The position numbers and the translations under genes are program-made. A stretch of 64,000 bases of DNA from an uncultured delta proteobacterium (GTDB lineage: Bacteria; Desulfobacterota; Binatia; UBA9968): the NCBI GenBank assembly GCA_963847445.1, contig CAWJZV010000048.1:96001-160000 (forward strand), in the 5' to 3' direction. How positions within the stretch are numbered: the stretch's first letter is position 1; each line of letters begins with the position of its first letter. Shown piece by piece: positions 680-38,752 of the stretch. Below the pieces are notes generated by a model that did no database searches, was not told the DNA's origin, and worked only from the letters and a program-made list of their open reading frames with translations.

Positions 680-2086
680 ATGCGCCGCACTAAAATCGTT
701 TGCACCATTGGCCCTGCCAGCTCGTCGGAGAAAATGATCGAAGGTTTGATCCGCGCCGGCATGAATGTCGCGCGGCTAAACTTCAGCCATGGCGACTATG
801 CCTCGCACCGCCGGGTGATTCGGACGATTCGTAAGCTCGAACGTAAACTCGACGACGCCGGTGGCGATCCTGCAGGACCTGCCGGGACCGAAGATCCGCA
901 TCGGCGCCATGGCCGGCGACCGCGTGCGTTTGCAAACCCGCGGCCGTCTGGTCCTGACGACCCGCAAAGTGCTCGGCAGCGAGCTGGCGGTGCCGGTGAA
1001 TTTTCCCGGACTGACTCAAGCGGTGAAAAAAGGCGATCCGATCCTGCTCGGCGACGGCGAGATCGAGCTCGAAGCGCTGCAAGTCGGCAAACAGGAAGTC
1101 AACTGCCGTATCGTCGTCGGCGGCATCTTGGGCTCGCACAAAGGCATTCACTTTCCGCGCAGCTCGCTCAACATTCGCGCCCTCACCGCCGAAGACAAAA
1201 AAGACTTGGCGTTCGGCATCGAGAACAAGGTCGACTTGGTGGCGTTGTCCTTCGTGCGCAACAGCCAGGATATTCTCTACGCCCGCCGCGAGATGCACAA
1301 ACTCGGCGCCAATATCCCGCTCATCGCCAAGATCGAAAAACACGAAGCCTTGGACAATCTCGACAGCATTTTGCAAAACGTCGACGGCATCATGGTGGCG
1401 CGCGGCGACTTGGGACTGGAGATCGCCCAGGCAGCGCATACCGGCGGTGCAAAAACATATGATTCGCGAGGCCAATCACCTCGGCAAGCCGGTCATCACC
1501 GCGACCCAGATGCTGCGCTCGATGGTGTGGAATCCGCGGCCGACGCGCGCGGAAGTCGCCGACATCGCCAACGCGATTCTCGACGGCACCGACGCGCTCA
1601 TGCTGTCGGAAGAAACCGCCGCCGGCGATTATCCGTTGGAAGCGGTCAGAATCATGGCCCAGGTCGCCGAGGAAACCGAAACAATTCTCGAACCGCGCCA
1701 ACGTTTCGCCGGGCTTGCCCAAGACGGTGCCGGAAGCGATCAGCGTCAGCGCGATTTCCTTAGCGCGCGACCTGGAGGTCAAAGCGTTTCTGATTCCGAC
1801 GACCTCCGGCAGCACGGCGCGCTTGATCGCGCGCTACCGGCCGACGCAGCCGATCATCGCCGTCAGCCCCGATCCCCAAACCGTCAAAATGCTTTGTCTG
1901 GTCTGGGGGGTCTATCCACAGCCGACGCGGGGTTTTAAGAACACCGATGAAATGGTCCGCGTGCTGCAAGAAAAAGCGCTCGAATCCGGCATCGTCAAAC
2001 GCGGCGATCTCGTCGCCATCACCGCCGGCTTACCACTGCACCAGTCCGGCACCACCAACATGATCACCGCCAAAGTGATCGAGTAA
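680..2086 (+). CDS. pyk: Pyruvate kinase (split by frameshifts over ORFs 605..1462, 861..1763, 1447..1938, 1715..2086)
   Basis: [83 protein letters not shown]. Confidence 0.95.
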
Positions 2087-4436: not shown

Positions 4437-4541
4437 TGTCATCCCGAGCGCAGCGATGGATCTCGTCTTCTTCGCCACTTACAAAGTCGAGATTCCTCGG
4501 CGGAGTTTATCCAGAGCCAAGCCGAAGCTCTCGGAATGACA
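4437..4541. repeat. REP-like palindromic element (TGTCATCCCGAG...CTCGGAATGACA) with a nested insert
   Basis: Terminal inverted repeats 4437-4448 / 4530-4541; internal gatctcg/cgagatt stem and extra cggagtttatccagagccaagccgaag segment. Confidence 0.6.
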
Positions 4542-5500
4542 ATGTCTTCTCATCCTCGCAATCTCTCGTCATCTCGCACCAGCTCTCGCCGGCGCCGCGC
4601 CCATTCGCATCGCCTACAGCTCCATCAGCGCCGCCATGCTGCCGCTGTTCGTCGCCAAAGACAAAAAGCTTTTCGACAAACAGGGCGTCGACGTTGAAAT
4701 AACCTACATCCGCGGCATCGCCATCGAAGCGTTGATTGCCAACGAAGTGCAATTCACCCGCGCCTCGCCGCCGACCGTCGTTGGCGCCACGCTGCGCGGC
4801 GCCGATCTCGCGGTCATCGCCAACACGATTAACGTGCCGGTGTTTTCCTTGATGACCCGTGCCGACCTGCGGCGTCCGGAAGATCTCCGAGGAAAGAAAA
4901 TCGGCGTGACCAGCCTGGGCGATTCGCCGGATCTCGTGCTCAGCATGATTTTAGACAAGTTCGGCTTGCAGCGCGGCCGGGATGTCACCGTTATGGCGAT
5001 TCGCGGCGGCATGCCCGACATGATCCTCGCCGTCAGCAAGGGTTTCGTCGACGGCGCCATGATCTCGGCGCCCAGCAACTTGCGCGGCATGAAATTGGGC
5101 CTGCGCGAGCTCATCGACTCCGCCGACCTAGGCGTCCCCTATCTCAATTCACCGCTCAGCACCCGGCGGGCCTTCATCAAGACTAACCGCGACATCGTGC
5201 TGCAAAGTGCTGCGCGCTTACTATCAAGGCGTGCAAGAAACCCACAACGACCGCGACGGCGCCATGAAGATCCTCGCCAAATACACCCGCGTCAGCGAGC
5301 CAGAAATCCTCGCCGAGTCCTACCGCATCTACGGCCAGAAGCACTTGCAGAAAACCATCAGCGTCGATTTGGAAGGGGTCCGGCAATTATTGAAAACGCT
5401 GGGTAAAGAAGCCGCCAGCGCCAACCCCAGCCAGTTTGTCGACGCGTCGCTGGTACAGGAGTTGGAGAAGGAAGGGTTGTTTCAGCAGAAGAGCCGGTGA
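4536..5500 (+). CDS. ABC substrate-binding protein, NMT1/THI5/SsuA-like (frameshifted; start approximate)
   Basis: IRIAYSSISAAMLPLFVAKDKKLF..QGVDVE, DLRGKKIGVTSLG; C-terminus in 5207..5500 ending FVDASLVQELEKEG. Confidence 0.8.
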
Positions 5501-30293: not shown

Positions 30294-30998
30294 ATGACCA
30301 CCGAGCCACGCGAGCTCGCCGATCTCATCGCCGCCCTCGATCATCCCGACAAGCCGACGATCCGCGCCGCCGTCGATAAGCTAATCGCGTTGGCCGAGAC
30401 TTCCGAAACTCTCAGACAAGCACTCCACAATCGCCTCAGCGAAGCGGGTCACAGAAACTATTGGCCGGTCGCCTACATTCTCGGCCATCAAGCCCGGCCT
30501 TCGGGACTTGTGATTCGCACGCTGCTCGACGCCCTCGACCACCGCGAACCGGATATCCGCTGGGCCAACGGCCTACTGCTCGTGCGCATCGCCCACCAGG
30601 AACGCGCCGTGGTACCGCTGCTGATCGAGCTGTGTGAAACCGGCAGCGCCAATCAGAAACGCATGGCGCTCTACTGTCTGCGCGACTTAGCTTTGAACGA
30701 TGCTGAGAGTCGGCTAGCAATGTTGACGGCGTTGGAAGACAAAGAACCGACAGTCCGCGTCGCCGCCGCAACCAGTCTGAAAGTGAGAACCGATGTCGAT
30801 CGCGCCGTTCGGCAAAAGCTGCTAGCGACTTATTTGCATGATGCCGACGACCGCGTGAAGAACGTAATCGCCGTAACCCTGGCGAGTCTAGGGTCGCCGG
30901 ATGAAGAATTTATGCGGGCGTTGAACGAAGCGAGCCGGAGCGGCAATGGGCAGATCAAAAAGAGCGCCGACGCGGCACTTAAGATGCTGCAAAAATAA
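30294..30998 (+). CDS. HEAT/PBS-lyase repeat protein
   Basis: Repeats LIAALDHPDKPTIRAAV, LLDALDHREPDIRWAN, LTALEDKEPTVRVAAA, DADDRVKNVIA. Confidence 0.8.
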   Translation: MTTEPRELADLIAALDHPDKPTIRAAVDKLIALAETSETLRQALHNRLSEAGHRNYWPVAYILGHQARPSGLVIRTLLDALDHREPDIRWANGLLLVRIAHQERAVVPLLIELCETGSANQKRMALYCLRDLALNDAESRLAMLTALEDKEPTVRVAAATSLKVRTDVDRAVRQKLLATYLHDADDRVKNVIAVTLASLGSPDEEFMRALNEASRSGNGQIKKSADAALKMLQK

Positions 30999-31044
30999 AA
31001 AGGCCCGCTACACTCGGCAGCTTGCGCGACCGGTGCAGCGGGCC
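30994..31044 (-). terminator. Intrinsic terminator of the small minus-strand transcript
   Basis: ggcccgctgcac ... gtgtagcgggcc stem followed by tttttatttt on the minus strand. Confidence 0.75.
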
Positions 31045-31180
31045 ACTGCGGTGGCTGAGGGAGATTCTCAGGCTCTAGGCCCGAATCTCCATTCAGAGTC
31101 GCCGCCTAGAGCCTAAGTCTCAGCCACCTCACAGCCAGTACTTAAATCAATCATGTCTGGACCACCTCCTTTCCCTGCTG
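30997..31180 (-). ncRNA. Putative ~185-nt structured small RNA or small-peptide mRNA
   Basis: Bounded by a near-consensus promoter and an intrinsic terminator; internal long hairpin; extended complementarity to the 16S 3' end. Confidence 0.6.
31113..31154 (-). CDS. Putative 13-aa micropeptide MIDLSTGCEVAET
   Basis: GAAAGGAGGTGGTCCAGAC directly before ATG 31154; TAG at 31115-31113. Confidence 0.5.
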   Translation of the reverse strand: MIDLSTGCEVAET

Positions 31181-31186
31181 ATTATT

Positions 31187-31240
31187 AGTTTACGAAAGTG
31201 TTTTTTCTCTGTCAATAAAATAACGTAAAAAAAATAAATT
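31187..31240 (-). promoter_or_regulatory. Strong sigma70 promoter with AT-rich UP element
   Basis: TTGACA(31215-31210)-17 bp-TAAACT(31192-31187), A/T tracts upstream. Confidence 0.8.
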
Positions 31241-31333
31241 GATTCAAACGTTGCACTCACAGCGATCGACAACTCTAACGGCCTTGCTCGGCAAAATCCT
31301 CCAAGCATGACGGCAGACCGTCAAGTTTCGATT

Positions 31334-32323
31334 CTAATCCCCATAAAGCTTTTTGATAAACCCACCCTGCTCCAGTTCCTTCAAATAACTCACGTCGATG
31401 AAACTCTCCGGCGCGAGACTCTTGGCCTTAGGCGTGCGCGTGCCGATCTCGTCAAGCACCATTTGAATGCCTTTGATCGTCGGGTACGGCACGCGCGGCA
31501 TCACTTTGACGGCATAGTGCTGATAGGTTTCCTCCAAAGCGTCGGGATCGGTCATGCGCGAATACTTGCCGATAACTTTCGCCGCGAAAGCTTTATCGGT
31601 TTTGAAGCGGTGCAGCCCTTCGACGTAGGCGCGCAGATAACGGCGGACAGTGTCGGGCGCTTCGCGCATGTACGAGCGGGTCGTCACGACGCCGGCGCCC
31701 TGGTAGTCGACACCGATGGCGCTCAAATCGGCGAGCAAGCTGAAACCGAGCTTGGCCGCTTGCAGATGAAGCGGCGAAGAGAGCATACCGCCGTCGATCG
31801 CTTTCGAAGCCAAGCCAGCGACAGTTTCTTGCGTACCGCCCATTTGAATCAGCGCCACATCACGGTCGGGCTGCAATCCCCACTGGCCTAAAACATAGCG
31901 CAGAAGGAAATCATCCGAGGTGCCGAAGCGGGTGATGCCGATCTTCTTGCCTTTCAAATCCTCGCGCCGCTTGATCTCCGGCTTGACCATGATCTTCTGG
32001 CCCGGCTTATGATTGGGCCCGGCGAGCATCACCAGATCGGCGCCGGCGAGATTCGCCTGAATCACCGCGGGAATGGCGATCTCGGATATCGGAATATCTT
32101 TCGCCAACATAGCCTGCACCACGCGCGAACTGCCGGCGACGTAAATCAACTCGACATCAAGTCCATGCTTCTCAAACAGCTTGGCCTCTTTGGCGACCCA
32201 AACCACCGCCATCGAACCGACCGTCGTCGGATAAGCGACTTTGAGCTTGATCGTTTGCGCGGCAATCGGATCGACAGAAAACGCTAGCCACAGGAAAAGA
32301 GCGGAGACAACGCGTTGCACCAT
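31334..32323 (-). CDS. ABC substrate-binding protein, NMT1/THI5-like
   Basis: Signal peptide, WVAKEAKLFEKHGLDVEL, DLKGKKIGITRFGTS, FIDVSYLKELEQGGF. Confidence 0.87.
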   Translation of the reverse strand: MVQRVVSALFLWLAFSVDPIAAQTIKLKVAYPTTVGSMAVVWVAKEAKLFEKHGLDVELIYVAGSSRVVQAMLAKDIPISEIAIPAVIQANLAGADLVMLAGPNHKPGQKIMVKPEIKRREDLKGKKIGITRFGTSDDFLLRYVLGQWGLQPDRDVALIQMGGTQETVAGLASKAIDGGMLSSPLHLQAAKLGFSLLADLSAIGVDYQGAGVVTTRSYMREAPDTVRRYLRAYVEGLHRFKTDKAFAAKVIGKYSRMTDPDALEETYQHYAVKVMPRVPYPTIKGIQMVLDEIGTRTPKAKSLAPESFIDVSYLKELEQGGFIKKLYGD

Positions 32324-37801: not shown

Positions 37802-38752
37802 TTATTCGATCCCCACGAACAATTCCTCCGCCGTGAGCTGCCGCTTGGTCAATCCCTGCTCGTAGCTGTAGAGCGCGAAGCGTTCGATGTTCTTGCGATT
37901 GGCTTCAAGGCCGTTCTTCCACGGATCGAAGCTGCAAAGATTATTCTGCCGCTCCAGCTCTTTCCTGCCCCACATCACCATGGACCAGTTGGGATCGACC
38001 CAGCGCTGCATGGCGCGGCCGCGGGATTGCTCGAAAATATCGAAAAGCGCGCGCGGCACCTCGGGATGTTTCTCGGCCAACTCTTTTTTGTAAGCCAACA
38101 CATGCATGATCGGGAAGTAGCCTTCCTCGCGCAGGTAGCGTTCTTCTTCGGCTTGCGGATCGGTGAACAAGCGATCCAAGTTCTGGTTGCCGTCGCGGAA
38201 AGGTTTGGGCAGGCGCGATACGAACATCGCTTGAATTTTACCGTCGACAAATTCCTGTTCGATCTCGGCCATGCTGTCGCGGCTTTCAATTTTTAAATCG
38301 GCGGGCAACTCGACATCGATCACCTCCTTTCCCGGCGTGATCCAAGTTACCGATTTTCGATCGACGCCGTAAAAATGCGTCAGATCGCCCTTGGCGCGCA
38401 CTCCTAGAGTATTCTGATAGCCACTCAAGCCGATACGCTTACCCATCAAGTCTCTCGGCGATTGGATGCCACAGTTGACGTTCCTATACATCTGCGACTG
38501 GCTGAACAGCCGGCGCGGAAAGATCGGCACCGCATGCACCGGCATGCCTTGGTCGACGGCGATGCAGTAGGACGAGAATGACAGCTCCGCGGCGTCGAAC
38601 TCCCAATGCTGCAAAAACCGCTCGTGACGCCCCTGCTGCGGGTCGCATTCGATATATTCGATGTCGATATCCGGGTGTTGGACGCAGCCTTCGAGCAAAG
38701 GCGCGTGCCGGTCATAGGAGCCTAGGGCCAAAGTAATTTTGAGTTTGGTCAT
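37802..38752 (-). CDS. 4,5-dihydroxyphthalate decarboxylase-like / SBP-fold protein
   Basis: LALGSYDR, EFDAAELSFSSY, PIFPRRLF, GYFPIMH, DPWKNGLEANRK, EQGL. Confidence 0.8.
   Translation of the reverse strand: MTKLKITLALGSYDRHAPLLEGCVQHPDIDIEYIECDPQQGRHERFLQHWEFDAAELSFSSYCIAVDQGMPVHAVPIFPRRLFSQSQMYRNVNCGIQSPRDLMGKRIGLSGYQNTLGVRAKGDLTHFYGVDRKSVTWITPGKEVIDVELPADLKIESRDSMAEIEQEFVDGKIQAMFVSRLPKPFRDGNQNLDRLFTDPQAEEERYLREEGYFPIMHVLAYKKELAEKHPEVPRALFDIFEQSRGRAMQRWVDPNWSMVMWGRKELERQNNLCSFDPWKNGLEANRKNIERFALYSYEQGLTKRQLTAEELFVGIE

Follow-up and report, generated by a model that had tools for sequence, protein, structure and literature searches.

Could a dedicated bacterial RNA engage, count or park ribosomes by way of the anti-Shine-Dalgarno tail of 16S ribosomal RNA (rRNA)? 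The question is raised by a small element on the minus strand of a 64,000-nucleotide (nt) stretch of contig CAWJZV010000048.1, hereafter the window, which comes from an uncultured bacterium of the class Binatia. The predicted RNA of approximately 185 nt (30994–31180, minus strand) comprises a 5′ box complementary to the 3′ end of 16S rRNA, a 13-codon open reading frame (ORF), a long hairpin and an intrinsic terminator; when the minus strand was read, every feature that an earlier note had listed for the locus was found in its place. Judged by alignment, the element is a divergent homologue of the Rfam family RF02471 (Ms_IGR-5), a catalogued actinobacterial small RNA (sRNA) without an assigned function. 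The most conserved part of this family is a maximal complement of the 16S 3′ tail, whose substitution pattern points to selection, and it is accompanied by a conserved micro-frame of which the geometry, not the peptide, is kept. On balance, we lean towards a reading in which the element is a stand-alone, translated, ribosome-tethering RNA that would be refolded by the passage of the ribosome, thus acting as a two-state switch.

The earlier note did not recognise the RNA as a member of any named family, and Rfam at its gathering threshold indeed gives no match in the window. A permissive scan of positions 30900–31350 aligned 30995–31179 of the minus strand to the whole of RF02471 (model positions 1–184 of 184) with 42.9 bits and an E-value of 1.6e-8 over 451 nt. 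The same single match was obtained in a genome-wide search (E 5.9e-8), and none of 14 control genomes gave one. The score lies 2.1 bits under the 45-bit cut-off, and by Rfam's own rule the element is therefore not annotated as a member; a full-length, near-threshold match of this kind nevertheless means that the statement about named families has to be withdrawn. The other permissive Rfam matches, mir-550 and the rest, were weak and were taken as chance. The element shares with RF02471 the 5′ GGAAGGAGGUGGUCC box, the UGAUUGAUUU stretch, GUGAGGUGGCUG, the CAG.CACC motif and the terminal hairpin, and members of the family are likewise single-copy and stand-alone. It differs in the middle domain, where a 10–11-bp stem is crossed by an 8-bp stem, whereas the Rfam consensus leaves AAUUCCCC...CACC unpaired, and in its host, which is not an actinobacterium although the family is titled 'Actinobacteria sRNA'. 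Among the matches listed, the nearest named carriers of the same subtype are metagenome-assembled genomes (MAGs) titled Candidatus Binatia (L093, L094, L097 and L150).

Scores against RF02471 range from 175.8 bits in Mycobacterium and 69.3 bits in an Actinomycetota-titled MAG (L064) to 47.5 bits in Ignavibacteriales, 37.7 bits in Zixibacteria and 32.7 bits in Terriglobales, and at E ≤ 0.01 the model has no match in the Rokubacteria, Nitrospiria, Leptospira and Bryobacteraceae loci. The Rfam cut-off thus misses most non-actinobacterial members. In the searchable text of the respective papers, the family is described as expressed in Streptomyces lividans (PMC8079986) and S. avermitilis (PMC8780764), and ribosome-protected reads are described on MS_IGR-5 homologues of M. 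abscessus and M. smegmatis (PMC4974804). The founding paper is Li et al. 2013, and the family was first reported in a heterologous-Hfq screen, according to the reference list of a citing paper. In the main text of the papers that could be searched, nothing was found on what Ms_IGR-5 does, on its pairing with 16S rRNA or on a conserved frame, and no printed account of the anatomy and breadth of the family was found in the literature searched.

The distribution of the element was followed in several ways. BLAST located it in 36 of the 41 genomes of a sample of relatives (G000 included). A cross-phylum pattern scan of species-representative genomes returned at least 120 rows. Among the matches listed, most belong to Actinomycetota, others come from genomes with the titles Binatia, Rokubacteria, Terriglobales, Bryobacterales/Solibacteraceae, Nitrospiria, Ignavibacteriales, Zixibacteria and Leptospira weilii, and four rows are chance matches inside genes. 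The pattern demanded the box together with TGYGAGGTG, and the invariance of both in this cross-phylum set is therefore circular. The more sensitive R1, a sequence-only model built from an alignment (A2) of 18 Binatia and 30 Actinomycetes rows only, finds all 19 test loci from other phyla (E 2.4e-12 to 4.9e-7) and none of the four in-gene pattern matches. The family thus reaches beyond the actinobacteria to Binatia and to genomes titled Acidobacteriota, Rokubacteria, Nitrospiria, Ignavibacteriales, Zixibacteria and Leptospira.

With respect to frequency, RF02471 detects the element in 75 of 101 genomes of the class Actinomycetes, 74 of them over the cut-off, and R1 detects it in 46 of 71 genomes and 11 of 18 families of the window's own class, in each case as one copy per genome. 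The element can accordingly be described as a near-core single-copy gene in two large groups. A relaxed pattern matched 6 of 81 genomes of the phylum Acidobacteriota, and the strict pattern matched 2 of 401 genomes of the window's own phylum and none of 12 same-class genomes from other families. Since R1 finds 46 of the 71 class genomes, the strict pattern under-counts and its zeros say little. Some counts include genomes flagged as unpublished, namely G005 (L012), G443 (L043), G462 (L177) and G474, and no claim is made on these alone.

The box, GAAAGGAGGTGGTCCAG, lies at 31173–31157 on the minus strand and is the complement of the 16S rRNA 3′ end. It had been described as complementary at 16 of 17 positions; the place of the box stands, and the seventeenth position turns out to be a G·U wobble, so that all 17 can pair. 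The organism's own 16S gene ends in ...CTGCGGCTGGATCACCTCCTTTCTAAGG, with the tail read as CTGGATCACCTCCTTTCT, and with the additional G at 31174 the extended box GGAAAGGAGGTGGTCCAG (31157–31174, minus strand) is therefore able to pair over 18 contiguous positions, one of which is G·U. The predicted energy of this duplex is −32.4 kcal/mol, and the pairing would reach across the entire free 16S 3′ tail (15 nt) and up to 3 nt of helix 45. Such a match is far longer than that of an ordinary Shine-Dalgarno (SD) sequence, as had been claimed: among 7,504 GGAGG sites in the 7.19-Mb assembly, only two reach 18 contiguous pairs with the 16S tail, one being the element and the other lying antisense to the 16S gene itself, and the next best site reaches 15. 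A G·U wobble is no universal feature of the box, given a perfect A in 2 of 30 Actinomycetes loci and the perfect complement GGTGATCC in six of the nine further class-level homologues that were readable.

Substitutions within the box are informative on whether pairing is preserved. They were tallied in 32 BLAST-derived Binatia sequences and 30 covariance-model (CM)-derived Actinomycetes sequences, neither set being selected on the 5′ part of the box; box positions 6–12 were fixed by a regular expression and are uninformative, whereas positions 1–5 and 17 were left free. Box positions opposite an rRNA C, A or G are invariant in these sets. Where the rRNA base is a U, the box has either A or G (e.g., 19 A and 11 G, or 25 G and 5 A), a variation by which pairing is kept. 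Positions 1–5 and 17 show almost only this change opposite rRNA U, with pairing kept in 28–32 of 30–32 sequences. A 14-base core of the box is identical in the elements of all 32 relatives, and the same box is present in 30 of the 30 CM-derived Actinomycetes loci, though the regular expression required GGAGGTG. The 16S tail itself is identical up to CCTCC in three of four actinobacterial genomes checked. From this pattern of substitution, pairing of the box with the 16S tail looks selected. When the window was compared with the organism's own 16S sequence, no complementarity was found past the mature 16S end into the trailer, and the idea of '3′ extension tethering', as it appears in the available part of 10.1101/2025.09.11.675593, is therefore not applicable here.

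Second in length among the genome's matches to the 16S tail is another site in the window. It consists of GGAAAGGAGGTGATC (38318–38332, minus strand; 15 contiguous pairs) inside a 316-residue ORF (37802–38752, minus strand), with an in-frame-looking ATG 2 nt later, and may be an internal start or a chance occurrence. The model R1 touches it at E 0.021.

The box is followed by a 13-codon ORF and a TAG stop codon, MIDLSTGCEVAET (31113–31154, minus strand), with ATG at 31154, TGT at 31133–31131 and TAG at 31115–31113. The second SD-like sequence that had been noticed within this frame, GAGGTG (31125–31130, minus strand), is present 9 nt before the stop codon, and its duplex with the 16S tail is predicted at −10.8 kcal/mol. 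The geometry common to the homologues is the box, an in-frame start, NGY-GAG-GUG, three codons and a stop. In 120 of 121 distinct box-to-stop strings, an open in-frame ATG, GTG or TTG stands 2–9 nt after the box, compared with 24 and 2 for the other frames; likewise, 120 of 121 reach their first stop exactly six codons past the NGY codon, compared with 0 and 0. The arrangement of a start behind the box, NGY-GAG-GUG, three codons and a stop is also found in all 30 CM-derived Actinomycetes loci. ORF lengths range from 11 to 19 codons, and the indels are multiples of three. The stop is mostly TAG, both in the pattern set (TAG 136, TGA 6 and TAA 5 among the matches listed) and in the CM-derived set (27 TAG, 2 TGA and 1 TAA).

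The encoded peptide is much less constant than its frame. The earlier note had asked for a test of whether an S-x-G-C-E-V-A peptide is conserved, and the comparison speaks against it: E-V is preceded by Cys, Arg, Gly or Ser, in every case encoded by NGY, and the codon before GAG in the 30 CM-derived loci is CGT in 24, TGT in 5 and GGC in 1, with AGT in Acidobacteriota. W, R and G interchange through NGG codons, in the Binatia alignment the second base of codon 7 differs between sequences (G/D/V), and the last three residues vary freely, leaving E-V as the sole constant residues. GAGGTG is invariant across all homologues seen, though most retrievals favoured GAGGTG, and the lack of any synonymous change in GAG GTG places the constraint on the RNA. 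At the codon level, then, what has been kept of the short ORF is the open frame rather than the peptide, and the conserved trait is probably the act of translation.

Cysteine was considered as a family-wide feature and rejected, on account of CGT in 24 of the 30 CM-derived loci and AGT among the Acidobacteriota matches; it had appeared invariant because TGY was required by the first cross-phylum pattern. Of the 249 variable-region codons read in frame outside the Actinobacteria-like group, 30 are Cys, versus 0 of 207 and 5 of 207 when the other frames are read, and 28 of 42 distinct variable regions hold at least one extra Cys, so that, from the codon counts, Cys enrichment is lineage-limited. 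Extra in-frame Cys residues in the arrangements CxxC, CxC, CC and Cx5-6C are common in the non-actinobacterial micro-frames, e.g., in L010, L025, L045, L062 and L091. Recoding, by read-through or frameshift, into a longer frame was ruled out: in the window sequence there is no open frame beyond the stop, and all three phases stop within 15 codons.

The RNA is predicted to be strongly folded. The minimum free energy of the 192-nt RNA is −99.1 kcal/mol, compared with −67.2 ± 4.1 kcal/mol for 200 shuffled sequences, none of which is as stable (z −7.8). The long hairpin that had been said to bury the stop codon is present. Its outer stem, P2 (31050–31128, minus strand), pairs GGTGGCTGAG (31128–31119) with CTCAGCCACC (31059–31050), and its inner stem, P3 (31070–31114, minus strand), pairs AGGCTCTAGGC (31114–31104) with GCCTAGAGCCT (31080–31070) and includes the A and G of the stop codon. 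Across phyla, P2 has 32 distinct 5′ strands, each with matching 3′ strands, and all 10 pairs are formed in 101 of 171 sequences, versus 28 of 171 after shuffling of the variable 6 nt. Covariation was examined in an alignment (A1) of 28 Binatia-type sequences, in which the whole structure is 90.0% paired, versus 34–56% with the partners slid. In these sequences, 97.8% of the P3 cells are paired and three P3 pairs have changed on both sides (GC 21/AU 7; CG 23/UA 3; AU 24/GC 1).

A further stem, P4 (31060–31090, minus strand), is formed by GGAGATTC (31090–31083), which is complementary to GAATCTCC (31067–31060), and crosses P3. In A1, 93.6% of its cells are paired and two pairs have changed on both sides (GC 22/AU 6), and other Binatia lineages have different complementary P4 arms in the same place. 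Covariation, for which the earlier note had proposed a test, is thus present in both P3 and P4. Of its claim that the alternative stem and the inner stem exclude each other, the crossing holds, and P4 may be either an alternative to P3 or its pseudoknot partner. When a ribosome was placed at the stop codon in a constrained fold, P4 was predicted to form and the CCACC strand to pair with the box. Besides these stems, actinobacterial homologues (e.g., L046, L123 and L124) have a GGAC (NGG ACN) in the frame that is complementary to GUCC in the box and to GUCC in the loop of the last hairpin. As a pairing with the terminator loop, this was not adopted: both motifs occur in 79 of 85 sequences, the flanks are without clear covariation, and the match is kept as a lead only.

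The element also has the layout of an independent transcription unit. The promoter (31187–31240, minus strand), previously described as an AT-rich UP element with TTGACA-17-TAAACT, consists of an AT-rich tract (31240–31216), TTGACA (31215–31210), a 17-nt spacer and TAAACT (31192–31187), and matches 10 of 12 consensus positions. A scan of 30500–31700 gave two promoter-like sites versus 0.5 expected. Among the 31 relatives with 60 nt of upstream sequence, a TTGAC-N16-18-TANNNT promoter ends 12–14 nt 5′ of the box in every one, and this fixed distance puts the box approximately 6 nt from the 5′ end of the RNA. From the position of the −10 box, the 5′ end would lie near 31180–31179. The intrinsic terminator (30991–31044, minus strand) has the stem 31044–31033/31013–31002 followed by TTTTTATTTTT, with 10 of its 12 pairs changed on both sides in A1, and the 3′ end of the RNA lies within the T-run. 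These data support a stand-alone transcript with its own promoter and its own terminator, and the element is single-copy in its own genome.

Expression is indicated by public sequence data. Of 24 listed sequencing runs from 14 studies, 16 that are catalogued as RNA contain all or part of the stretch. Metatranscriptome contigs of 185–254 nt from four studies, with the boundaries 30995–31171, 30984–31169, 30975–31169 and 30916–31169, fall on the RNA of approximately 185 nt that had been predicted, and stop at the terminator in three of the four runs. RNA libraries of no more than 17 and 47 million letters still yield a discrete contig, and the contigs of the RNA libraries cover nothing else in 30600–31600, which counts as a weak hint. 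Together with the RF02471 alignment (30995–31179), these contigs support the whole RNA given above, and we can conclude that the small RNA gene is real and expressed.

With regard to the surroundings, the neighbours in the window are genes for an NMT1-type binding protein and a HEAT-repeat protein; the latter (30294–30998, plus strand) is the next gene and is convergent on the element, as the earlier note had stated in denying the element an attenuator role. No conserved neighbour gene was found across phyla among the loci whose neighbours were scanned. Elsewhere, the neighbours include MFS transporters, SLT, aconitase, Maf, holA, aldolase, ligase, class IV aminotransferase, TIR/PknH_C, GCV_T and nitrobindin-like proteins. 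Within the Actinomycetes, synteny is partial: upstream of the element, subsets have a GCV_T-type gene or a class IV aminotransferase; downstream, a THAP4/nitrobindin-like gene occurs, again in a subset. A HEAT-repeat protein of 206–234 residues is convergent on the terminator in both Binatia families scanned (window, 30294–30998, plus strand; L049, 1858–2478, minus strand), and one cluster of flanking ORFs is common to 28 loci.

The reading towards which we lean can be put as a sequence of steps. The box, within the first ~25 nt of the RNA, would pair with the entire free 16S tail, and pairing of this extent would therefore bind the 30S subunit very tightly near the RNA 5′ end. The 13-codon frame, five nucleotides downstream of the box, would then be translated. 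Its last six codons (NGY-GAG-GUG-N9) and the stop form the 5′ strands of P2 and P3, so that a ribosome reaching the stop would have to melt both stems. With the ribosome at the stop, the internal GAGGUG would stand 6 nt behind the P-site codon, which is the normal SD spacing, while the released strands would form P4 and the CCACC strand would pair with the box. The output of such a system would be the act of translation and the RNA fold rather than the peptide.

Several observations weigh against this proposal. The match to RF02471, at 42.9 bits, is below the curated Rfam cut-off of 45. The large cross-phylum set is circular for motif invariance, and the unbiased sets are smaller (32 and 30 sequences). 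The contigs reveal neither the ends of the RNA nor its strand or level. A box of such strength could hinder, not help, escape from initiation. With respect to the fold, P3 and P4 cross over a linker of just 3 nt, which fits alternation as well as coexistence; P1, the stem that would enclose the start codon, is without clear covariation and 73% paired in A1; and P4 is weak outside the Binatia-type sequences, where the longest helix is 5.5 versus 4.4 in shuffles.

The same features could also be explained in other ways. An RNA acting purely as a sponge or parking place for 30S subunits or 70S ribosomes, with translation of the frame being incidental or a mere route of release, would account for a box whose predicted pairing with the tail (−32.4 kcal/mol) could not be longer and that lies ~6 nt from the predicted 5′ end, and for a single-copy, widespread RNA that yields a discrete contig even in the two small libraries. 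It is nonetheless unlikely, as a sponge needs no fixed start, no open frame and no fixed distance between GAGGUG and stop, all of which are kept in 120 of the 121 distinct sequences. The C-rich strand of the RNA (CCACC and the AAUYCC motif) invites the thought of a trans-acting base-pairing sRNA that binds the SD sequences of target mRNAs, with box and frame serving stability or gating. Such a role would agree with the lack of a conserved neighbour among the loci scanned, with the conserved CCACC strand, which the internal GAGGUG is predicted to sequester and which is freed in ribosome-masked folds, and with the report of the family from a heterologous-Hfq screen, as the citing paper's reference list has it; the element offers few conserved single-stranded parts, and we regard this explanation, too, as improbable.

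A functional micropeptide gene, or a leader-type frame that senses cysteine, would be in keeping with the enrichment of in-frame Cys outside the Actinobacteria-like group (30/249 versus 0/207 and 5/207; an extra Cys in 28 of 42 regions), and cysteine-rich regulatory short ORFs are described for mycobacteria in the available text of PMC9094748 and 10.1101/834739. We consider it quite unlikely, because a peptide of 11–19 residues in which only E-V is constant, from codons never changed synonymously, and in which W, R and G interchange through NGG and the last three residues are free to vary, does not behave as a conserved product; the seemingly invariant Cys is Arg in 24 of the 30 CM-derived Actinomycetes loci and Ser in Acidobacteriota, and no linked modification or export genes occur among the neighbours scanned. 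With its alternative helices and its short frame ahead of a terminator, the element has, in turn, the classic layout of an attenuator, from which a cis-acting leader of a neighbouring gene could be imagined. The downstream gene, however, is convergent both here and in L049, from the other Binatia family scanned, the neighbours differ between phyla, and the RNA contigs end at the terminator in three of four runs, all of which make a cis-acting leader highly improbable.

Comparison with known systems places the ribosome-tethering, refolding RNA that we favour between existing types. The STAB-SD of the Bacillus thuringiensis cryIIIA mRNA is a 5′ stabiliser in which an SD-like GAAAGGAGG near the 5′ end binds the 16S 3′ end; it is not known to be followed by a used start codon, and it protects a long downstream mRNA. 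The element resembles it through an SD-like sequence that lies near its own 5′ end and can pair with the 16S 3′ end, and differs in its conserved in-frame start 2–9 nt after the box (120/121) and in having no downstream cistron. In the recoding sites of prfB and dnaX, an internal SD lies inside the frame. The likeness here is an SD-like sequence in the frame at a fixed distance from the stop with a stable structure just downstream; the differences are the lack of an extended frame past the stop and the spacing of 6 nt to the P-site codon. Leader-peptide attenuators, including the mycobacterial cysteine-rich short ORFs in the accessible portion of PMC9094748, likewise have a short translated frame whose occupancy picks between alternative helices near a terminator, whereas the element is without a regulated downstream gene and, with Cys codons enriched in some lineages and the key Cys replaced by Arg or Ser in others, apparently without a family-wide regulatory codon. 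The element is thus partly STAB-SD-like and partly like a leader-peptide switch, yet each of these types has a defining feature that it lacks. In a dual-function sRNA, base-pairing with defined mRNA targets is combined with a functional peptide, and the pattern of peptide conservation speaks against such a peptide here. For rpsU of Flavobacterium johnsoniae, the available text of PMC13000453 describes an SD of unusual strength by which the availability of the anti-SD is read out; rpsU is a protein-coding mRNA with an autoregulatory product, whereas the element is a stand-alone RNA with a non-conserved peptide.

A bolder and rather doubtful possibility is that the element, which would be an abundant, stable RNA conserved in at least seven phyla, does in RNA form what ribosome hibernation or parking factors do, or that it senses free translation capacity. 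The RNA would then occupy the complete free 16S tail, which the ribosome could leave only by translating the micro-frame of fixed geometry; at termination, the anti-SD would be passed from the 5′ box to the internal GAGGUG, and the 3′ domain of the RNA would flip. If true, its role toward the ribosome would be like that of the 6S and Ms1 RNAs toward RNA polymerase.

Several minor observations concern individual members of the family. In the window's class, two subtypes of the element occur (L092, L128 and L185–L194): the window type, ending in …CEVAET, and a second, 'Rokubacteria-like' subtype (…TVICEVVAS), often having a perfect GGTGATCC box and no TTGACA promoter. In a Terriglobales MAG (L043), the element at 4478–4668 lies approximately 3 kb from a transfer-messenger RNA (tmRNA) gene and 160 nt before a tRNA gene, the features of these tmRNA/tRNA surroundings being at 1024–1385 (minus strand) and 4832–4903 (plus strand). 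A contig of a MAG titled Gammaproteobacteria (L088) carries a Mycobacterium-type element (LVDLWTCEVAAS), probably by mis-binning or contamination. In L064 (G442:C8:1697857-1698208), two RF02471 matches of 52.4 and 27.7 bits are adjacent, head to tail, and may represent a partial tandem duplication; in another RF02471 search, the same place is a single 352-nt match.

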